Part shown: one piece after another, positions 1-10,225 of the stretch
Numbering within the stretch: position 1 is the first letter of the stretch
Layout of the letters: every line of letters begins with the position of its first letter
NCBI GenBank assembly: GCA_965247115.1
Contig: CBDFGR010000003.1
Coordinates: forward strand, 1-64,000
Direction: 5' to 3'
Origin: Myxococcota bacterium
GTDB taxonomy: Bacteria; Myxococcota_A; UBA9160; SZUA-336
DNA: 64,000 bases
Notes under the pieces: generated by a model
The model's database searches: none
Told to the model about the DNA's origin: nothing
Seen by the model: the letters and a program-made list of their open reading frames with translations, nothing else
Translations under genes and position numbers: made by a program

Positions 1-81
1 ACACCGCGCCCACGGACTCAGTAGAAAGATCCGCGCGACACTTGTGGGGCGGTGAATACGGAGCGGTGGATGGAGTGCTTG

Positions 82-379
82 TCACGCCGCGCCTTCGTCC
101 GCGCAGTTCGCACCGGAGTCGTCGAACTCGCCGAAGACAAGATCGACGGCCTTGATCTCGCCGTTCGAGTCAGCGATCGGCAGGCTCATCTTCACGCTGG
201 GAGTCGCGTCGCATGTGCTCGGGCGCGAGGTTCGGAATATCGCGGCGGTCTCGCGTGCCGCACATAGACTCGGCAAGATGAAACTCACCGATGACTGAGC
301 GAGCCCCTCTTGGATCGAACTGTACCGTCCCGATATCCGGAGGTGGATCGAGTCCCTTGGGCACCTGGAGTGACCTCAC
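82..379 (-). CDS. Chain of short, coupled phage hypothetical ORFs downstream of cro (about 170-379 and 82-189)
   Basis: GTGA start/stop overlaps at 376-379 and 82-85; no recognisable motif. Confidence 0.35.
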
Positions 380-606
380 GCGGCTCCCTCTGTGGCGGGT
401 TCGGCGGCGCTTACGCGGCGTCGCGCGGGAAAGTGGTCCTCTGGCCGGACTTTTCCTCCGGTGGCTGACGTGATTCGGGCCCAAACCCGACCCCGAACGT
501 CGCCTCCGTTGCAGACCCTGGAGACAGCGCTCTGGTAAATCCCAGAGCGCTTTGCAAAGGCGATCTGAGTCTCGTCTCGCTCAAATAGGTATTGCTCGAG
601 CCGCAT
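376..606 (-). CDS. Cro-like HTH regulator
   Basis: MRLEQYLFERDETQIAFAKRSGIYQSAVSRVCNG...RITSATGGKVRPED is a typical phage Cro/YdaS pattern; divergent from a CI-like gene. Confidence 0.85.
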   Translation of the reverse strand: MRLEQYLFERDETQIAFAKRSGIYQSAVSRVCNGGDVRGRVWARITSATGGKVRPEDHFPARRRVSAAEPATEGAA

Positions 607-621
607 CGGGAAGAGAGTTAT

Positions 622-680
622 CCTTATTTGGCTCAAGCGTCCATCTTTATTTGGCTGGACCTCCGCCTATCCAAATCGGG
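622..680. promoter_or_regulatory. Putative repressor operator sites between cro and cI
   Basis: CCTTATTTGGCT (622-633), CTTTATTTGGCT (645-656) and inverted CCCGATTTGGAT (669-680); the same motif recurs at 1312-1344. Confidence 0.65.
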
Positions 681-735
681 ATTCCCGCATTAACCTTTGA
701 GGTCGGGAGGTTTCGATGACTAAGCGGGGAAATAC

Positions 736-1304
736 GTGCCGTGGAAGCCGCGTCGCGTAGAGTTCGAGATGACCACGGGGAAACGAGCTGGCAACTCTTT
801 GGAGGACGTTCTCCGGGATCTAGTCGTCAAGGCGCGCGACGATCTGGGGATGAACCAGAAGGACTTTGCGAAGAATCTCGGGATCAGTCAGTCGGCCTTG
901 AGCAGATTCGAGAGCGATGCGCCCGAACCAGTCGGGGGAATTCTGAGCAGCTCAAATCGTCCGCGTTAACGAGGATTTGCGTTCTTCTCGATGAGAATCC
1001 TGTGAACTTTCTCATCGAACACCCACTGTACGACGGCGCGACGCGTGCCCGCATGACGTTTCCAAAGGACCATCTATACCGCCGCTACAACGCCCAGCTC
1101 AAAAACGCCGAAGCGCTGGGACTGCTTCCAAATCTCAAGCGGGCAAAGGACTTGGGAGTGTTCGAACAGGCGGTCGCTGCCGTCGCCAATGTCGTCGAGG
1201 CGGCGGAGGAATCCCGCGCCACTATGCCACCACTACAGCCACGCCCGGGTCCGCGTGATTCCCATCGTTCACCTAGATCGTCCCAAACTCGCCGATCCTC
1301 TTAG
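736..1304 (+). pseudogene. CI-like XRE HTH repressor split by a frameshift near 915-945
   Basis: Frame 736 gives KARDDLGMNQKDFAKNLGISQSALSRFE; the HTH continues as EQLKSSALTRICVLLDENPVNFL in the 741..1304 frame. Confidence 0.75.
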
Positions 1305-1311
1305 GTCAATT

Positions 1312-1351
1312 CCTAATTTGGGTTGAATCGATATCCAAATAAGGTTACATT
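1312..1351 (+). promoter_or_regulatory. Sigma70-type early promoter TTGAAT-N17-TACATT with overlapping inverted operator pair
   Basis: -35 at 1323-1328, -10 at 1346-1351; CCTAATTTGGGT (1312-1323) and ATCCAAATAAGG (1333-1344) are inverted copies; GGAGG precedes ATG 1382. Confidence 0.7.
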
Positions 1352-1381
1352 TGACCTCCGTCACCTACGACGGAGGCCTCG

Positions 1382-2191
1382 ATGCCCGATCCCGCCCCTT
1401 CCCCTCCCGACCCGAGGCATCCTCTCCCCGACCGTCTCGCCCAGCTGGACTCCCTGCACCTGAACACAGGTGCCTCCTCAAGCTTCGACGAAGGCCACTG
1501 CGCGCTCGAGGTGGTCGCCTGGCTCGCAGGGGAGGAGCACAGCGACCATCCGCAGTGCACGAGTGCCGTGGTCGGAGACTTCGTCCGCTGCTGGAATGAC
1601 AACCTTTTAGACGAGGATCGAGACCGTCTGCTCAAGCCCCTGCTCCCCCGCCTCGTGGGATCGGAAGGAGATCCCGACACGGAGCTCGCCCGCTCCTACC
1701 TAGCCCTCGACTGGCTCTGCCGGGTCCATACGCCCGCATGGCTGGATCTCGTGGAGAGTCTGAGCCCGCATGCCGCGAAGCTGCGCGGACTCGGCGAGAT
1801 CACGGACCTCGTTCGTGCAAGCGCGGCGCAGCCGATGATCCGTGCTGCGAGGGACGCTGCGGGGGACGCTGCGAGGGACGCTGTGGGGGCCGCTGCGGGG
1901 GACGCTGCGAGGGACGCTGTGGGGGCCGCTGCGGGGGCCGCTGCGAGGGTCGCTGCGTGGGACGCTGTGGGGGCCGCTGCGGGGGCCGCTGCGAGGGTCG
2001 CTGCGGGAGCCGCTGTGGGGGCCGCTGCGGGGGACGCTGCGAGGGTCGCTGCGGGAGCCGCGGCGGGGGCCGATGCGAGGGTCACCGCGTGGGACGCTGC
2101 GAGTGCCGCGCTCGAGCCGACCGTGCTCACGCTCCAGGATTCGGCACGCGATCTCGTTTGTCGAATGCTCGCGGTGGGGGAGTCCGCATGA
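1382..2191 (+). CDS. Phage hypothetical protein with Ala-rich tetrapeptide repeat tract
   Basis: CALEVVAWLAGEEHSDHPQC...RCWND N-terminal block followed by (DAAG/DAAR/AAAG)n; good RBS; ATGA overlap with next gene. Confidence 0.85.
   Translation: MPDPAPSPPDPRHPLPDRLAQLDSLHLNTGASSSFDEGHCALEVVAWLAGEEHSDHPQCTSAVVGDFVRCWNDNLLDEDRDRLLKPLLPRLVGSEGDPDTELARSYLALDWLCRVHTPAWLDLVESLSPHAAKLRGLGEITDLVRASAAQPMIRAARDAAGDAARDAVGAAAGDAARDAVGAAAGAAARVAAWDAVGAAAGAAARVAAGAAVGAAAGDAARVAAGAAAGADARVTAWDAASAALEPTVLTLQDSARDLVCRMLAVGESA
1851..2102 (+). repeat. 12-bp degenerate tandem repeat, about 21 units (GGG[A/C/T]CGCTG[C/T]GN)
   Basis: Read directly: gggacgctgcgg gggacgctgcga gggacgctgtgg gggccgctgcgg... Confidence 0.95.
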
Positions 2192-3090
2192 CTCCCTCCT
2201 CCCCTCTCCGCAGCGATCTGAAGAGATGGGCGAGAGAGTCGAAGCCAGGCGTCTACCGTGGCCTCTCCGAGACCGAGTACGACGCGATCGACGCGGTCCG
2301 CAGCACGAAGCTCAGCTACTTCGCCGACGGTAGGACGCCCGCGCACGCGAAGTACCTGATCGACCACCCTCCGCCCCCGAAGGATCACCTCGACATCGGC
2401 GCCGCTCTGCACTGCGCCGTGCTCGAGCCGGAGAAGTTCGACGACGAGTGGGTCGTCGCTCCTAAGGTCGACCGCCGCTACAAGAAGGACAAGGCCATCT
2501 GGGCCGAGTTCGAGGCGGAGAACGCGGGCAAGGGGATTCTGAAGCGCCAGGACATGAACCTGGTCTTGGCGATGCGCGACGGGGTCAACCGGAACGAGCT
2601 CGCGCGCCGGCTGCTGAAGGGGGCGGGGCAGAACGAGCTCACGCTTGTTTGGGAGGACGAGCAGTCGGGTCTGCTTTGCAAGGCGAGACTCGACCGGATC
2701 ACGGAGTACGAGGGCTACGTCATCGTCGTCGACCTGAAGACGACGGCGCGGCTCGCTTCCAAGGAAGCGTTCGCGCGAGCGATGGGAGACTTCGGCTACC
2801 ACCGTCAGGAGGCGTTCTACCGGATGGCGATGGACGCGCATTTCGGCGAGATGCCGCGTCGGTTCGTCTTCATCGTGATCGAGAAGGCGGCTCCGCACAT
2901 CGTCGCGACGCATGAGACCGGGCCGGAGTCTCTCGATGCGGGTCAGCGTGAAGTGCGCACGCATCTGACGGAGTACGCCGCGTGTACGGAGTCGGGCGTC
3001 TGGCCTGGATACGGAACGTCGACGCTACTGACCGAGCTGCCACCGTGGCGGCTGCGACGAGTCGAAAGAGACGAAGAGGTCGTGTTTTGA
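2188..3090 (+). CDS. RecE/exonuclease VIII-like PD-(D/E)XK nuclease (DUF3799 type)
   Basis: GAALHCAVLEP, CKARLD, VDLKTT, YHRQEAFY and FVFIVIEK motifs. Confidence 0.9.
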   Translation: MTPSSPLRSDLKRWARESKPGVYRGLSETEYDAIDAVRSTKLSYFADGRTPAHAKYLIDHPPPPKDHLDIGAALHCAVLEPEKFDDEWVVAPKVDRRYKKDKAIWAEFEAENAGKGILKRQDMNLVLAMRDGVNRNELARRLLKGAGQNELTLVWEDEQSGLLCKARLDRITEYEGYVIVVDLKTTARLASKEAFARAMGDFGYHRQEAFYRMAMDAHFGEMPRRFVFIVIEKAAPHIVATHETGPESLDAGQREVRTHLTEYAACTESGVWPGYGTSTLLTELPPWRLRRVERDEEVVF

Positions 3091-4163
3091 ACTGCAAGAG
3101 CTGCAACGCCCCGGAGGGCTCCCCGCACGGAACAAACTGCAAGGTTCACCCTCCGGGCTCCAGCGAAGAGAAGCCCGAGATGGAGGAGCAACGCGGGGTC
3201 GCCACGATCGACGATTCCACTGGGGCGATCGCGGACATGAGCGAGGGCGGGCTGCGTCCGACCAACGCAAAGGAGCTCGCCGCGCTCGCGAAGCAGGCGG
3301 CCCTCTCGAGCCTGGTTCCCGAGCCCTTCCGCAACAAGCCGAACGACTGCTTCGTCGCGATGGCGATGGGGAGAGAGATCGGCTTCGACGCGTTCCAGAG
3401 CTTGCAGATGTTTCACGTCGTCAAGGGGAAGGTAGGTCTTCCCGGCGAGGCGATGGTGGCGATCATCCGGAGTCGCGAAGAGTGCGAGTCGCTCAGGATG
3501 GGCACCGAGGGGTCGCTCGAGGATGGAAACCTTACGGGGTGGGTCGTCTCAAAGCGGCGCGGTCAATCTGAGAACGACAAGGTGACCTTCAGTCTAGAGG
3601 ACGCGATGCTGGCTGGGCTCTACCCCGGCAAGAAGGATCGCAACGGCGAGCCGAGCGTCTGGTCAAAGTACCCGAAGGACATGCTCATCTGGAAGGCCGT
3701 AGCGCGCGACTGCCGACGGAACTGGGCCGACATGACCCGGCGTGTTCCCGTCGCTGAGGACATGCCCGGCTACGGCGAGTCAAGGCTTGAGATCAACGTC
3801 ACACCGCCGCGCGAGGAGACTCCGACGGCGGACCCGGCTCGTGCACTCTTCGCGGGTGAGTCGATCGAGCCTGAGATCGTCGGACCCGAGGGGCCCGGCG
3901 GTCCCGCTGCACCGAACGCAGAGCCTGCGAACGCCGGGACGCCCTCTGACGATGCGAATGCAACGGGTCGCCCGGCTCCGAGTGAGGGATCCAGTGAGGC
4001 CACGCCGGAGCCGGGACTTCCCAACGAGGACGGCCCGAAGTTCTCGGCGCTACCCGAGGACTTCGACCCGAGTCGCGACAACTGCCCCGACTGCGAGCGC
4101 ACGGCTGATCTCGGTCACAACCCGGGGTGCTCCATCGCGAAGCTGCTGAAGGAGCAGAGGTGA
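3087..4163 (+). CDS. RecT/Red-beta-like single-strand annealing protein (start TTG 3087 or ATG 3180)
   Basis: LVPEPFRNKPNDC, GREIGFDAFQSLQ, WSKYPKDMLIWKA; directly after the RecE-like gene. Confidence 0.8.
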   Translation: MNCKSCNAPEGSPHGTNCKVHPPGSSEEKPEMEEQRGVATIDDSTGAIADMSEGGLRPTNAKELAALAKQAALSSLVPEPFRNKPNDCFVAMAMGREIGFDAFQSLQMFHVVKGKVGLPGEAMVAIIRSREECESLRMGTEGSLEDGNLTGWVVSKRRGQSENDKVTFSLEDAMLAGLYPGKKDRNGEPSVWSKYPKDMLIWKAVARDCRRNWADMTRRVPVAEDMPGYGESRLEINVTPPREETPTADPARALFAGESIEPEIVGPEGPGGPAAPNAEPANAGTPSDDANATGRPAPSEGSSEATPEPGLPNEDGPKFSALPEDFDPSRDNCPDCERTADLGHNPGCSIAKLLKEQR

Positions 4164-4348
4164 CACGAACCACCGACCAAGAGTTGGTCGACCGCGTCCC
4201 CTGTGAGGGCTCCGAGGACTGCGAGCAACTGGTCGATCGCGACGGCTTCCGTCTCTGCGCCGAGCATATGAAGGAGGCATGGGACGGGATGGAGGAAGCG
4301 GAGAACACGCCTCCGTCTCGCAGACCGAGGCGAAGAGATGGCAACTGA
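4160..4348 (+). CDS. Small phage protein with C-x5-C-x11-C-x2-H motif
   Basis: GTGA overlap with the recT-like stop; PCEGSEDC...LCAEH. Confidence 0.55.
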   Translation: MTRTTDQELVDRVPCEGSEDCEQLVDRDGFRLCAEHMKEAWDGMEEAENTPPSRRPRRRDGN

Positions 4349-4427
4349 GCCGACGGCTCGACTTGCCATGATCTGCGGTGTGGTCTGGTATGGTGCGATC
4401 CAGCTTGTGGGAACGCTCGTGCCATGA
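4338..4427 (+). CDS. 29-aa hydrophobic peptide (MATEPTARLAMICGVVWYGAIQLVGTLVP)
   Basis: Translated by hand; fills the gap between two genes and its stop overlaps the xis start (ATGA). Confidence 0.5.
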   Translation: MATEPTARLAMICGVVWYGAIQLVGTLVP

Positions 4428-4681
4428 AGGACCCGTGCTGGAGTCTCGATCAGTGTGCAGAGTTCCTTCAGTGCAGCACCAAGACCGTGCGAAAGATGAT
4501 GAGGGGCGGATTCCCGCACTTCTACGTGGGCCGGAGACCTCGGTTCCGTCCGGAGGCGGTAAGGGAGTGGGTGCATGAGCAAGAACGGAGTCGCCCCCAT
4601 AGCCTCACCGTCGCTGCGGATCGAATCCGGGAGTCCCGTGTCCAGGAGCGCATCCTGAGAAGAGCCGCCCGTGTCTCGTAA
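4424..4681 (+). CDS. xis: Excisionase-like HTH_17 protein
   Basis: SLDQCAEFLQCSTKTVRKMMRGGFP...GRRPRFRPEAVREW; overlaps the integrase start. Confidence 0.85.
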   Translation: MKDPCWSLDQCAEFLQCSTKTVRKMMRGGFPHFYVGRRPRFRPEAVREWVHEQERSRPHSLTVAADRIRESRVQERILRRAARVS

Positions 4682-6089
4682 GGCAGACGGCCCTCGAATC
4701 TTCAAGCGTGGCGCGCACTACTACGTGGAGTACGTAGAAGGCAACGAGATACTCATCCCCCGTCAGTCCCTCCGGACCAAAGACGCCGGGAAAGCAAGGG
4801 CCGCTGCGTCGAGGCTCATCCTGGAGTATGAAGAGCGCGGCTACACACCAGAGGGTGACGAGCTCCTCTTCCGAGACGCAGCCGCCGCCTACCTCAAGCA
4901 CGGGATGTCGAACCTGGCAGGTACAACGCAGGATGACCACAGAAATCATCTCCGTCTTGGCGGAATGCTGGACCGGGCTTTTGGCGACATCCCGATATCT
5001 CAACTCACGGATGAGTCGCTACTCCGGTGGTGGGAAGAGAGCATCGAGGGGAAGCGAGCGACAAGTACGGGACGGCGATATCTCGATAGCGTCTCGGCAA
5101 TTATGCGCCGAGCCCGTCGTCACCGGCTCATCGTGCACAATCCCGTCGTAGACTTTCAGGCCATTATCCGGGAGGAGAACAAGACCAAGAAGGGCAGAGC
5201 TCTAAGTGAGGCGGGGAAGCATGTCCGGCCTATTGAGGACCCCGCGGAAATCGAACGCATCCTTGCTTCGGCCCGAGAGGAGAGTCTAGAAGATCACGTG
5301 CTGGTGCTGCTCATGCTCGACGCTGGACTGCGCATCGGAGAAGCCATGCAGATCCGCTGGCGGGCAGTCAACTGGGGAGAGGACGAGAACGACCTAGGCC
5401 GCAGCCTCGAGATCTCGGAGTCGAACCCCAGAGGCATGTACCCCGGTGATCCACCCAAGAGTGGGAGGACGCGCTATGTGGATCTCTCCAGGCGGCTACG
5501 ACGGGTCCTGATGGAGCTCTACACACAAGAGTTCCGGCCCAGCCCGGATCGTGTCATTGTGCCGCGCGACCAGGGCAACTGGAGGCAGAGGCAGTGGCGC
5601 AGAATCCTGGCGCGTGCCGGGACCACTCGAGCGTGGCGACCGAAAGATCTGCGCGACACCTTCGCGAGCCAGCTGCTCTCGAATGGTCAGGAGCTCGTGC
5701 ACATCGCCGACCAGCTGGGCCATTCGTCCGTGGGCGTGACGGAGCGTCACTACACCAAGTACATCCGTCGCAAGAGGTATCAGCCGACACCGCCACTAGC
5801 CTATGGCGAGCTCCCGACGGACGCGCTGGCTCGGCTTGGCGCGCCCAATAAACGTCCACAAAGCGGACACTCGGGGTTTTCAGACCAACACGCTCCTGGC
5901 GACAGTGCAGAAACTGTTAGCAATGTCGCGGGCTTCCGTGGTGAGCGCGGCCGGGATCGAACCGGCGACCGGCGGATTCGGAGTCCGCGAGGCAGGATAC
6001 TGTCCATCACGAAGCCAGCCCGTCCGGGGCCATTAATCAGAGAAGCACTAAGAGGGCCGGGCTCATGGCAATTTCCTCGGCGCAAGTGA
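4671..6089 (+). CDS. int: Tyrosine integrase 1 with long C-terminal tail crossing an att core
   Basis: DAGLRIGE, PKS, KDLRDTFAS, QLGH, ERHY catalytic motifs. Confidence 0.95.
   Translation: MSRKADGPRIFKRGAHYYVEYVEGNEILIPRQSLRTKDAGKARAAASRLILEYEERGYTPEGDELLFRDAAAAYLKHGMSNLAGTTQDDHRNHLRLGGMLDRAFGDIPISQLTDESLLRWWEESIEGKRATSTGRRYLDSVSAIMRRARRHRLIVHNPVVDFQAIIREENKTKKGRALSEAGKHVRPIEDPAEIERILASAREESLEDHVLVLLMLDAGLRIGEAMQIRWRAVNWGEDENDLGRSLEISESNPRGMYPGDPPKSGRTRYVDLSRRLRRVLMELYTQEFRPSPDRVIVPRDQGNWRQRQWRRILARAGTTRAWRPKDLRDTFASQLLSNGQELVHIADQLGHSSVGVTERHYTKYIRRKRYQPTPPLAYGELPTDALARLGAPNKRPQSGHSGFSDQHAPGDSAETVSNVAGFRGERGRDRTGDRRIRSPRGRILSITKPARPGPLIREALRGPGSWQFPRRK
5939..5988 (-). repeat. 3' half of tRNA-Arg(CCG); att core
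   Basis: Minus strand folds as gcgga-ctCCGaa-tccgc, cggtc, gccgg-ttcgatc-ccggc, cgcgctc-a-cca; D-arm and 5' acceptor strand absent. Confidence 0.9.
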
Positions 6090-6099
6090 GGATACCCAC

Positions 6100-6627
6100 G
6101 TGCTAAGAGAGATCTTCGTGCGACCGATCGGGGGAAACAAGAAGCAGGTCTTGCGGGCGTTGGCGGTCTTGGCTGCGACCAGTTTGGTTGCCGCTACAGC
6201 CTTGGCAGAGGGTGCTGGGTTGATCTCTCTCGTTCGGCTCGTTGCCGTACCCGAGCAATACGATGGCCAGCTCGTTCAGACCATGGGCGTCATCACCTTT
6301 GAGCCTCGACTGACGATGCTCTATATCTCGCCGTCAGATGCAAAACACGCAGTGATGCCGAACGGGATTGTCGTCGAATTCACTGGTGGGGAGATTGATC
6401 TCGATTACGCCCGTCAGTTCGATGGGCAGTTCGTGTTCGTCCGGGGAGGTTTTCGATCGACCAAGGACGAATACCGGAACCTTCCCGCGGGAATTATCAG
6501 CAGTATTGAAGAGATCTACGGCGAGGAGAACTGGAACTATCTCGCCGTCAGATGCAAAACACGCAGTGATGCCGAAACGGGATTGTCGTCGAATTCACTG
6601 GTGGGGAGCAAGCAGACAACCTGCTGA
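6100..6627 (+). CDS. Secreted hypothetical protein (moron-like); C-terminus altered by a duplication
   Basis: Signal peptide LAVLAATSLVAATALA; visibly lower GC than flanks; last ~30 codons come from the repeat read in another frame. Confidence 0.7.
   Translation: MLREIFVRPIGGNKKQVLRALAVLAATSLVAATALAEGAGLISLVRLVAVPEQYDGQLVQTMGVITFEPRLTMLYISPSDAKHAVMPNGIVVEFTGGEIDLDYARQFDGQFVFVRGGFRSTKDEYRNLPAGIISSIEEIYGEENWNYLAVRCKTRSDAETGLSSNSLVGSKQTTC
6324..6608 (+). repeat. 70/71-bp direct repeat (6324-6393 and 6538-6608)
   Basis: tatctcgccgtcagatgcaaaacacgcagtgatgccga(a)acgggattgtcgtcgaattcactggtggggag; copies differ by one inserted A. Confidence 0.95.
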
Positions 6628-7074
6628 GGGTAGAGTGGCGTTGGCGCTGGATCCGGTTCCTCTACCACCGCGCGGTCTTCGTGGGCGGGAACTTCGGCGC
6701 CTACGATACCTGCGGACCGGAAGCGGGCGAGCGATGCCGGCACAACATGAGGATGCCGGACTGGATGCGTTCGCTGGCGCCATGAGCCTGCCTCTCTCGG
6801 AGCCGCACCAGATCGATTGGGTCAGCCGATCGGCCACCTCAGCGTAGTCGTCGTCGGACGCGAAGCACCAGTCCGGTACGCGCACGTCTTGCTCGAAGTT
6901 CCTGCGGAATTCCGCCATTAGCTGGCGCGCGGCCGCTCCCGCCTCCACCGGCGTTGACGGGCAAGACGTGGCGACGAGACTGCGACGGTTGGCGCAAGGA
7001 GGAGAGGGGGTTGAGGGACTCATGTATGCGAGGTCTGTTCATGGTACGCAGGCCCGGGGGTCGGGTGTTGGAAA

Positions 7075-7673
7075 CGGTCGGCCGCCTGCAGCGTCAGGAG
7101 CACGTCTACCGAACCCTCGTCATCGACACGATCGACCACGTCGAGCCTCTCGTCTGGGAGGAGACGTGTCGTCGCATGTCCGAGGGGGGGCGGAAGACGT
7201 ACGAGCACGTCGAGGATTTTGGGTATCAGAAGGGCTACCTGTTCGCCGATCGCGAGTGGACGCAGCTCTTTCACGCGCTGGACGCGATCCGACGCGACCC
7301 CGGCATGATGATCGTCGTGCTCTCCCACAACGAGAGCAAGACGTTCGAAGATCCGGTGATCGGTCCCTACGACCGCGTCACTCCGAAGCTCCACAAGCGA
7401 GCGAACGCGCTGCTCTACGAGTGGGCCGACATCGTCGGCTACCTGGAGATCCAGCGAGCCACGATCGAGAAGGAGGGCGCGAAGAGTCGGAAGGTGCGCA
7501 CCAGCGCCACAACCGGCACGCGCGAGCTCTTTCTCGAAGACACCGGAGCCTTCATCGCGAAGAACCGCTACGGGCTCCCCATCCGAATCGAGGTGCCCCA
7601 GGCCAACCCCTACACCCCGCTGCGCGAAGCGCTGAAGTTAGCGCTCGGAGTCCAGAAGCAGGAGGCCGCGTAA
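7075..7673 (+). pseudogene. Sak4-like/AAA_24 phage ATPase, 5'-truncated
   Basis: YRTLVIDTID (Walker B), FGYQKGY, VVLSH, EWADIVGY and AKNRYGLP present; no Walker A and unrelated sequence upstream. Confidence 0.8.
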
Positions 7674-8177: not shown

Positions 8178-8911
8178 TGGCCGAGCTCCCCCGCATCCGG
8201 AGTCCGCAGCCCCAGATCGCCAACCGGATCTTCCGGGCACTCGAGAGGCGGGAGGCCGATCGTCCGCGGAGCGGAAACCTCACCATGAGCGGCATCGGAG
8301 AGTGCGCTCGCCATCTCTGGGCCGAGCGAAACGAGCACTCGACGCCGAAATCCAGGCCGGGCCGGGTGCTCGCGATCTTCGAGTACGGAAACGCGACCGA
8401 GTCCCATGTGATCGGGCTCCTCCGCCTCGCGGACTACCTGATCGGCGCGGAGCAGCGTCGCGTCACCTGTGATCTCGGCGATGGACTCACACTGCGCGGC
8501 CGGATCGACGGAACGATCCTCCTCGGCAAGAAATATTCCGAACGGCTGGAGGCGCTGCTCGAGGTGAAAAGTGCGAAGGCGTCGCAGTTCGAGGAGTGCA
8601 AGGCGAAGGGCTACGAGAAGTGGAATCCGAAGTACGCGGACCAGCTCCAGATGTACATGGGCGCGGGAGGCTTCCACATCGCCATTGCCTTCGTGTATTG
8701 CAAGGACATCTCCGAGCCCTACGCGGAGAAGATCCGCTTCGAGCCGGAGCGCTACGAGGCCCTGAAGGCGAAGGCACGTCTGATTCTCACTTCCGAGGAG
8801 CCGCCCAAGCGTCCCGATGAGGCGACTTCGCAGTTCTGCAAGTTCTGCAAGTGGTGTGACGCGAACGAGTGGTGCTGGTCGCCCGTCGCGGAGACACGCT
8901 TCGACGACTGA
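8177..8911 (+). CDS. Cas4-like PD-(D/E)XK exonuclease with Fe-S cysteines (phage type)
   Basis: SGIGECARHLW, GRIDG, EVKS, QLQMY, CKFCKWCDANEWC. Confidence 0.85.
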   Translation: MAELPRIRSPQPQIANRIFRALERREADRPRSGNLTMSGIGECARHLWAERNEHSTPKSRPGRVLAIFEYGNATESHVIGLLRLADYLIGAEQRRVTCDLGDGLTLRGRIDGTILLGKKYSERLEALLEVKSAKASQFEECKAKGYEKWNPKYADQLQMYMGAGGFHIAIAFVYCKDISEPYAEKIRFEPERYEALKAKARLILTSEEPPKRPDEATSQFCKFCKWCDANEWCWSPVAETRFDD

Positions 8912-8969
8912 GAGGCCCGTGAGAGAGCTTGCTTGCAATCTCTACCCTGCCCGTAGAACATGGGCTGAC

Positions 8970-10133
8970 GTGGCCAACGATGGACGGGTCACGACCGACC
9001 GCTACCGGGGTCCCCACATCGACTTTCGGTCGGTCAAGTGGCCAGGCAGGACGGAAGGTCGGCGGATCAAGATCAACCGAGCGCCGGGCTACGGTCGCTT
9101 CACGTCAGAGGACGAGGCCGAGAAGTGCCGCCTCGAGATCCTTGCACAGTCTCTTCACAAGCCCCTCTACGACGTGCTCTCCCAGTACCTACGGAGAGAG
9201 ACGCCTGAGAACTCCGCACTCTATCGTTGGAACCATGATTTTCTCCCCGCCAAGTGGGCGAAGCACCAGCGGAAGGGGAAGCCATCGAGGAAGCGCATCT
9301 ACGAGCTCGAGCGCTACGAGCACCGTGGCCATCTCGACTTCTGGGCAGAGATCTCGATCCACTCGGTGAACGAGCCTGCCTTTGAGCGCTGGGTCGCCTG
9401 GCTCGAGACGAAGTTCCCTCACCTCGCACCGAGGACGATCAAGCACCTGGTCGATGACTTCTGGACGTTCCTACGTCACGAGAAGAAGTTCGGCGTGATC
9501 GATCAGGTGCCCGAGCGACCGGAGATCGAGGTCCCGGCACACCAGCCGAAGGTCCCGAACAAGAGCGATCGGGACCGGCTGCTGCGCGCGATCCCGTGGT
9601 CGGAGCGCGGACTGTTCATCGCGCGCACACTCGCTGGGCTCCGCCCGTCCGAGGCCCGGCGCCTCGACGTGGGTGACTACGACTTCCGCGCTGGTGAGCT
9701 TCGCATCCAATCGGTGAAGTCCAAGACGCAGCGCGGCCGCGACCTTCCCATCCGAGATGTGGTTCCAGCTCTAGACGAGTGGATCGTCGAGCACAGAGCC
9801 GAGGCGAAGGCTTGGGAGCCACTCTTCCCGAACCCGCGTGCCGAGAACCCAGAGGGGCGCTGGATGGACCGCGCCGAGCGCCTCGTGTGGACGAGGGCTG
9901 AGAAGATCTGCGGCTTCGAACACATCCGCCCGAACGAGGGGGGTCGCCACTCCTTCGCGACCCACGAGATCGGGGACGGCACCGATGTCTATGCGGTCAA
10001 GGACTGGATGGGACACACCTCTCTCAAGAGCACGGAGCGGTACACCACGATTTCCACCGTGACACTCGCCCGCCGGATGCGACCGAAGCGCGGAACAAAA
10101 TCGGAACAGGAACAGAAAGAGTCTCCTAAGTGA
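8970..10133 (+). CDS. int: Tyrosine integrase 2 (start uncertain, 8919 or 8970)
   Basis: AGLRPSE, KSKT, GGRHSFAT, WMGH, TERY; adjacent to tRNA-Cys. Confidence 0.93.
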   Translation: MANDGRVTTDRYRGPHIDFRSVKWPGRTEGRRIKINRAPGYGRFTSEDEAEKCRLEILAQSLHKPLYDVLSQYLRRETPENSALYRWNHDFLPAKWAKHQRKGKPSRKRIYELERYEHRGHLDFWAEISIHSVNEPAFERWVAWLETKFPHLAPRTIKHLVDDFWTFLRHEKKFGVIDQVPERPEIEVPAHQPKVPNKSDRDRLLRAIPWSERGLFIARTLAGLRPSEARRLDVGDYDFRAGELRIQSVKSKTQRGRDLPIRDVVPALDEWIVEHRAEAKAWEPLFPNPRAENPEGRWMDRAERLVWTRAEKICGFEHIRPNEGGRHSFATHEIGDGTDVYAVKDWMGHTSLKSTERYTTISTVTLARRMRPKRGTKSEQEQKESPK

Positions 10134-10151
10134 CTGTTTCTAAAAGACTAT

Positions 10152-10225
10152 TGGAGGCGGCGACCGGATTCGAACCGGTGATCAGGGCTTTGCAGGCCCA
10201 CGCCTTACCACTTGGCTACGCCGCC
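10152..10225 (-). tRNA. tRNA-Cys(GCA)
   Basis: ggcggcgtagccaagtggtaaggcgtgggcctGCAaagccctgatcaccggttcgaatccggtcgccgcctcca; complete cloverleaf with CCA. Confidence 0.97.

Follow-up and report, generated by a model that had tools for sequence, protein, structure and literature searches.

The tyrosine integrase gene (int) at 4671-6089 of the window (the whole 64-kb stretch analysed, the first 64 kb of contig C3) almost certainly ends in a recombined attachment-site junction, in which a tRNA-Lys-derived core lying inside the int frame has been joined to a site that is not a tRNA gene. We propose, with a probability of about 0.62, that a tRNA-Lys-type phage module sits here on the end of an RHS-repeat gene, that its 7-bp overlap TTCGGAG was captured at a secondary site and has been reused at least once, and that the accompanying change of the integrase tail is probably incidental.

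The integrase, its core and the junction with an RHS gene

The genome (G000) comprises 5.17 Mb in three contigs (C1, C2 and C3). The left 10 kb of the window is phage-like, and Pfam matches and open reading frames place there Cro/CI-type genes, a DUF3799 nuclease, the HTH_17 gene, for which position and Pfam match suggest an excisionase role, and int (Table 1). AAA_24, DUF669, a second integrase and a tRNA-Cys lie 3' of int. The stop codon of the second integrase (8817-10225) is 18 bp before the convergent tRNA-Cys; no other tRNA-Cys fragment was found in the assembly, hence this region looks like a short prophage remnant. An Ala-rich ORF at 1382-2191 contains tandem repeats, the number of which differs among the prophage copies of the genome.

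Table 1. Features of the int locus (window positions) and empty sites elsewhere in the genome (contig:position)
Feature	Position	Strand	Remark
Xis-like HTH gene	4424..4681	+	Overlaps int start; Pfam HTH_17, E 2e-7
Tyrosine integrase, 472 aa	4671..6089	+	Pfam Phage_integrase PF00589 at residues 191-363
Codon of catalytic Tyr361	5751..5753	+
AACGTCCAC, putative arm-type Int site, int-side arm	5851..5859	+	126 bp before overlap
tRNA-Lys(CTT) 3' part carried by phage	5939..5976	-	CCA end, T arm, 3' anticodon stem; phage-side core half-site
Last 37 codons of interrupted RHS-repeat (polymorphic toxin-like) gene	5976..6089	+	In frame with int
7-bp overlap TTCGGAG	5977..5983	+	TTAAGAG in tRNA-Lys copy
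Target-side core half-site TCCGC	5984..5988	+	From invaded gene; mimics 5' anticodon stem
Gene after RHS end	6100..6627	+	71-bp internal duplication; no Pfam match
Empty TTCGGAGTCCG sites	C2:508232, C3:629856, C3:786560, C3:678488

The predicted product of int carries the catalytic signature of lambda-like tyrosine integrases: the PF00589 match scores 72.8 bits against a cut-off of 27.1, and R221, K263, R328, H351 and Y361 are invariant across 76 sequences, with K325 occupying the His position. The frame continues for 111 residues beyond Tyr361 and through the core at 5939-5988, in agreement with the roughly 110 codons reported in the earlier note. Conservation ends near residue 389; the structure model built on the 76-sequence alignment is confident to about residue 392 and gives pLDDT values below 50 for residues 406-472, where the alignment has little depth, and this tail is predicted to be unstructured. 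The same model has three strands and a helix at residues 7-56, a candidate N-terminal arm-binding domain, while the single-sequence fold (mean pLDDT 35.9) was uninformative. AACGTCCAC, likely an arm-type Int site, occurs on both att arms, on the far-end arm as a 12-bp tandem (C3:2564580/2564592 and C2:235484/235496). The closest integrases among named records come mostly from Myxococcota or deltaproteobacterial MAGs, which makes a host from these bacteria likely; no close integrase was found in cultured phages, all 602 matching records being below 60% identity and the 25 listed at 23-27%. Viral contigs scanned with the single integrase protein yielded no relative; scanned with the integrase alignment they yielded 13 loci, four of them family-level and one with a tRNA fragment.

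The core is a 50-nt tRNA 3' part on the minus strand (5939-5988), with a paired anticodon arm, a T arm and a CCA end, lacking the 5' half and lying inside the int ORF, as the earlier note had seen. That note took it for tRNA-Arg(CCG). Comparison with all ARAGORN tRNAs of the genome gave instead 48/50 identical positions with tRNA-Lys(CTT) (C3:2634119-2634194), both differences being anticodon bases, and only 32/50 with tRNA-Arg(CCG), which rules out the latter as the target; tRNA-Arg(CCG) has an island of its own with a different fragment (C3:939033-939077). A host tRNA does therefore match the fragment, though not the one named. Forty nucleotides of the core match the 3' end of the host tRNA-Lys exactly (E about 1e-15), and the stretch assigned to the phage side is identical to it. 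The overlap was positioned by inference, from the divergence point of the junctions and a gap of 7 bp in a genome of the same genus (G002, see below). Its two altered bases (5979-5980) account for the false CCG anticodon and replace K by R at Int residue 437, and the paired "anticodon arm" is a composite of the phage half-site GCGGA, the overlap and the target half-site TCCGC. Rfam detected no tRNA at the fragment at E values up to 0.1, and the 17-nt anticodon arm of the window is present in two of 224 other genomes of the class, as part of a tRNA in neither.

Downstream of the core the sequence belongs to the invaded gene. Int residues 439-472 (34 aa) come from the end of the RHS gene; residues 436-472 share 89% amino acid identity with residues 2062-2098 of an intact 2098-aa RHS paralogue (C3:678379-684672), and window 5976-6537 is 95% identical to C3:677925-678489 over 565 bp of DNA. 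C3:678489, 38 codons before the end of that paralogue, is an unoccupied site with the same overlap and half-site as the window. The three RHS-repeat paralogues of the genome (C3:678379-684672, 2358752-2362003 and 2393236-2398935) are more than 90% alike, diverge at their C-terminal ends and lie in prophage-like regions. The gene that follows the RHS end may by its position be immunity-like; its duplication (6324-6393 and 6538-6608, 98.6%) makes it longer than its 152-aa paralogue.

The phage arm which follows the core at far-end junctions (C3:2564498+ and C2:235402+, with AACGTCCAC repeats) is absent from the window. With an RHS gene end on its right flank in place of the far arm, the window site represents an int-side junction that has already recombined. 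The unrecombined attP proposed in the earlier note, matched to tRNA-Arg(CCG) of this or a previous host, is thus very improbable, and for the present host it is refuted: although CCG does stand in the loop of a fully paired anticodon arm, the 3' part is that of tRNA-Lys, the flank is an RHS gene instead of a phage arm, and in none of the other genomes of the class that were searched is the anticodon arm part of a tRNA. An orphan tRNA fragment with a false anticodon had misled the assignment. The replaceable tail counts 34 residues, against the ~32 of the earlier note, and these residues are the product of integration and not its substrate. No partner junction for the locus, which would join the RHS 5' part, the overlap and the far arm, was found in the assembly, and the side of the locus on C1 carries a different structural module that ends at a tRNA-Leu fragment. 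As its partner end is missing, the window copy, as assembled, would be unable to excise precisely.

In reverse complement, C1:1-6007 matches window 1349-7341 at 99.2% identity, so the same locus has been assembled twice, once in C1 and once in the window. Between window 1-5992 and the C2 copy identity reaches 99.9%, and contig depth, a poor measure, is 4.3-5.1 on the first 1.35 kb of the window and 9.6-17 on int; this identity together with the single-copy-like depth suggests that the start of the window contig was borrowed from the C2 prophage. The C1 version has one extra base just before the core, with which int would end at 424 aa, and one might suppose that this is the true sequence and that the read-through in the window is a product of assembly, the more so as the contig start is likely borrowed and C1 is the other assembly of the locus. 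We consider this improbable, since the C1 letters are a column-by-column mix of two real alleles, the extra base is in none of the short-read contig pieces listed at the locus (both alleles shown there keep the frame open), and the int copies on C2 and at tRNA-Lys both read through. Given the mixed letters and the absence of the base from the contigs, we treat it as a probable consensus error. Short-read contigs of two runs (X2 and X3) span the window junction (5949-6140) with zero differing letters, and loose contig ends also show the empty RHS site, the C2 junction, the intact tRNA-Lys and the tRNA-Lys far end. The runs come from one sample, possibly the source sample, so they check the assembly and do not represent an independent occurrence; at the window locus the arm alleles could not be phased from contig depth.

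Three loci and a shared variant overlap

Four near-identical integrase copies were found by tblastn: in the window, at C2:278063 (+), at C1:2672 (-) and at C3:2635462 (-). With C1 and the window counted as one, these make three loci, at each of which int reads across the core and takes its last residues from the target.

At the first locus an intact tRNA-Lys(CTT) (C3:2634119) adjoins a 98%-identical int, which reads through the tRNA in antisense and encodes 463 aa; the overlap is TTAAGAG on the int strand. A displaced 45-nt tRNA-Lys fragment (45/45 identical) lies at C3:2564454-2564498, its match ending exactly at the end of the 7-nt loop, as at both far-end junctions, and after C3:2564498 begins the far phage arm, which carries tandem AACGTCCACTTT. 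With both the intact tRNA and the displaced fragment present, this locus reads as an anticodon-loop integrative element of tRNA-Lys(CTT). Its two ends are inverted relative to each other in the assembly, owing either to recombination between the many related prophages or to misassembly. Such inversion relative to the intact gene, with linkage to other prophages, is seen for the far-end fragments at C3:2564454 (versus 2634119) and C1:41864 (versus 279065). A tRNA-Leu(TAA) at C1:279038-279364 (L222:3102-3341) is interrupted by a group I intron of 238 nt (RF00028 in Rfam, 68.2 bits) and was missed by ARAGORN without its intron mode; inside the related integrase region beside it lies a 1.29-kb insertion sequence (C1:277177-278466) with 27 other near-identical copies.

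The second locus is a 44-kb prophage (C2:235396-279375) with terminase, portal and major head genes. It carries TTCGGAG at both ends (C2:235396 and C2:279369) and the same far arm as the tRNA-Lys locus, and it occupies the 3' end of a YihY/BrkB-family gene. In G002 the YihY-family gene is uninterrupted, and the two prophage flanks align contiguously, 7 bp apart. The third locus, that of the window, has the overlap TTCGGAG as well, with only one end seen.

We propose that Int would bind the GCGGA/TCCGC inverted repeat, that is the anticodon stem, and exchange strands about the loop of 7 bp. If the phage once inserted, as a rare event, into a target mismatched at the two central bases and was then excised, the resulting attP could carry the overlap of that target; the altered attP would prefer TTCGGAG sites over tRNA-Lys, and the overlap might be reused for entry into protein-coding genes (YihY-family, RHS). 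In the lambda secondary-site model of Rutkai et al. 2006, attP reportedly takes on bases of the secondary attB. The adaptation signature, in which both prophage ends carry the overlap of the secondary site, is found at C2; the window locus offers one end only. The attP of Sa3int is reported to adapt to secondary sites and to integrate there better (PMC8649754), and mv4 Int is described as accepting any overlap identical in both partners (bioRxiv 2023.11.06.565760). In ICEBs1 a mismatched 7-bp crossover is reported to leave unlike left and right ends unless repaired (PMC3715440; also PMC8649754); the identical ends of the C2 prophage would accordingly fit an incoming attP that already carried TTCGGAG.

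Over window 2191-5988 the C1 and C2 modules are separated by 10 alignment columns, and either one is separated from the tRNA-Lys copy by 86-92. At 84 columns, a 33-bp deletion among them, the window, C1 and C2 have a common state that the tRNA-Lys copy lacks, and the two TTCGGAG modules are sisters. At eight columns, of which five fall within the att-proximal arm, C1 has the letter of the tRNA-Lys copy against that of the window and C2; at two it is private, and two end columns are a trimming artefact. The Lys-like columns of C1 fit an independent capture or a later gene conversion.

Nine sites in the genome follow the pattern A-TTNNGAG-TCCG: four have CG in the centre (three junction copies and the empty paralogue), one has AA (tRNA-Lys) and four have other bases. 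From these nine sites, a small number, the probability that two independent off-target picks share CG is no more than modestly low, at about 0.07-0.14. The full TTCGGAGTCCG occurs seven times (three junction copies and four empty sites), the Lys version once. No excised TTCGGAG circle was seen among the contig loose ends of four runs, in which contigs drop rare variants and cannot show absence.

Heritable capture and reuse of the overlap is, on this evidence, likely. It would not be needed if a TTAAGAG phage had hit two TTCGGAG sites independently and its ends had been evened by repair or conversion, or if the window junction were an Int-mediated rearrangement between a C2-type left end and the RHS site and not the insertion of a circle. 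Candidate sites are indeed few, and in a genome this rich in GC their centre is most often CG; close to att the arm of C1 resembles the tRNA-Lys copy, the window locus lacks a partner end and prophage ends are shuffled across the genome; collapsed repeats, moreover, could have homogenised the copies, which also counts against capture. Such a history is nevertheless unlikely, at perhaps one chance in four, because the overlap of the target is on both C2 ends, the C1 and C2 modules are sisters, and the route by rearrangement would still require a recombination-active variant overlap.

The genome holds several further tRNA fragments of interest. The 5' 40 nt of tRNA-Lys(CTT) are duplicated 1.5 kb upstream of the intact gene in the same orientation (C3:2632593-2632632), with two changes, one of them in the loop, and may be an old junction. 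A tRNA-Phe 3' fragment (C3:1041667-1041840) ends at the loop and is followed by an arm 78% like the far arm of the window element; as tRNA-Phe shares the GCGGA/TCCGC stem with tRNA-Lys, this suggests a sister element differing in the overlap. Altered overlaps are also seen in a tRNA-Pro(CGG) fragment (C3:2333624-2333670, one changed loop base) and in a tRNA-His fragment (C2:1100731-1100773, a short duplication at the loop). The tRNA-Pro(CGG) fragments at C3:652791 and C3:2333624 were considered as parallel cases and set aside, as they look like ordinary far ends with no ORF across.

The integrase tail and the family survey

Since the core lies inside the int frame, integration changes the C-terminus of Int. 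The crossover falls at int codons 436-438, after which 34 (window), 11 (C2) or 25 (tRNA-Lys) residues follow, for totals of 472, 449 and 463 aa. In the circles reconstructed in silico the frame runs on through the far arm for a tail of 53-54 residues with a net charge of -10 and an acidic end (491-492 aa in total), while the integrated tails are neutral to basic. The translated att forms thus bear out the earlier suggestion of an Mx8-like layout, with five forms of 449-492 aa in this one genome.

Relatives were surveyed at 162 loci, of which 83 were usable after removal of 43 without the motif, 24 with short downstream DNA and 12 duplicates; the anticodon loop was taken as the crossover throughout. 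An intact convergent tRNA was found at 40 of the 83, a same-strand tRNA at seven, a fragment at 12 and nothing at 24. The 40 convergent tRNAs cover 14 tRNA types. In 28 of them the int ORF crosses the anticodon loop, in 10 it stops before the tRNA and in two within the 3' part or loop. That homologous integrases would stop before the crossover therefore holds for 12 of 40 relatives and fails for the other 28, att within int being the layout of most, and the family evidently functions whether or not int reads through. Across the loop the int frame stays open in 28/40, against 17/40 and 9/40 for the other two frames; a stricter control, in which near-duplicates and kin remain, gave 28/37 versus 26/57 (p about 0.003). 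The 28 crossing ORFs use all three frames (13/11/4). Among the relatives with a fragment only, 7/12 end exactly at the end of the loop (two of them being copies of one element), the pattern expected of a true attP or of a tandem junction. In one relative (L038) the integrase is followed by a tRNA-Arg(TCG) fragment that includes four bases of the 5' stem and then by non-tRNA DNA, a candidate for a second secondary-site junction in the family.

The tails beyond the catalytic Tyr, aligned for 107 of 111 homologues, have a median of 61 residues (10th-90th percentile 42-102, extremes 16 to 250-type), and the 107 share no tail sequence past about residue 389. In attP-like relatives the tails, where there are any, are unrelated and range from 7 to about 70 residues. 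Residue 438, the swap point, lies about 50 residues beyond the last conserved motif, from which a small effect on activity, or none, would be expected. The changing tail is probably incidental and dispensable.

It is conceivable that the tail is a regulatory switch, a possibility we find doubtful, and a little more so in its strict Mx8 form, in which the acidic circle tail would mark an active or stable Int and the target-derived tails would lower activity or stability and hold the prophage in place. Both circles keep an open frame of 53-54 codons with the acidic end and the charge of -10 opposed to neutral or basic integrated tails, in relatives the int frame is open across the loop more often than the other frames are, and there is the precedent of Mx8, probably of the same phylum (PMC6070905, PMC4701971), where the swap point is also far past the Tyr (about 68 residues) and the swap is nonetheless reported to lower activity. 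On the other hand, 12/40 relatives end before the crossover and three frames are used, the tails of attP-like relatives are unrelated in sequence and length, and the tail is predicted to be unstructured in a region without alignment depth; furthermore, the circle tail is read through arm-type repeats, so that its sequence is fixed by DNA function.

Comparison with known systems

An att site inside int (Mx8) and the adaptation of attP (Sa3int, lambda) are each known; here they probably occur together in nature, with controls in the same genome. The controls are the original tRNA-Lys insertion, two non-tRNA insertions that have one variant overlap in common, the empty paralogue of a target and four empty matches, and the natural attP/attB pairs with five Int tails provide material for the study of integrase target change and of Mx8-type regulation by tail swap. 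Our literature search, which left most subscription journals outside, found no paper on this integrase family or on such a case. The fullest interpretation would have a tRNA phage leaving its tRNA by a heritable two-base capture for a new set of protein-coding targets, four more of which stand empty, each site writing the C-terminus of Int and the acidic circle tail being the on-state. We hold this to be quite unlikely; if true, the choice of target and the activity of the integrase would be linked at every site, throughout a widespread and undescribed integrase family of the Myxococcota.

The elements resemble anticodon-loop (site A) islands (Islander, PMC4383910; PMC8371274) in the 7-bp loop overlap, the stem as inverted core sites, an attP that carries the tRNA 3' part and the displaced 45-nt far-end fragment; unlike these, the window copy brings the tRNA 3' part into a non-tRNA site, which results in an orphan fragment with a false anticodon. 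ICEBs1, as described in PMC3715440, likewise uses a tRNA site with 5-bp inverted repeats around a spacer of 7 bp and inserts off target in protein-coding genes, but its ends differ left and right and it tends back to attB, whereas the C2 prophage ends carry the identical variant. In Sa3int (phi13; PMC8649754), and reportedly in lambda, attP takes bases of a secondary attB, with identical attL and attR then found at that site. The primary site is reported to be mutated in the Sa3int host, whereas here the primary tRNA-Lys is present and occupied by a sister copy; in contrast to both systems, the variant overlap is common to two unrelated protein-coding targets on one chromosome, and the change lies inside the int frame.

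In Mx8, attP is inside int and integration is reported to exchange 112 C-terminal residues for 13 (IntP to IntX), with lowered activity (PMC4701971); the layout is also described in PMC6070905 and PMC4383910. As in Mx8, a tyrosine integrase is convergent with a tRNA, its ORF passes through the tRNA antisense and attP, and its C-terminus is replaced on integration. The two proteins have no significant similarity, however (best BLASTP E 0.035), and the Mx8 integrase is not among the matches listed (25 of 602 phage records). The present element further differs in a crossover placed in the tRNA-Lys anticodon loop, in a circle tail of 53-54 aa that is acidic and of low complexity, in having two of its three loci outside tRNA genes, and in a change of activity that is here only putative.
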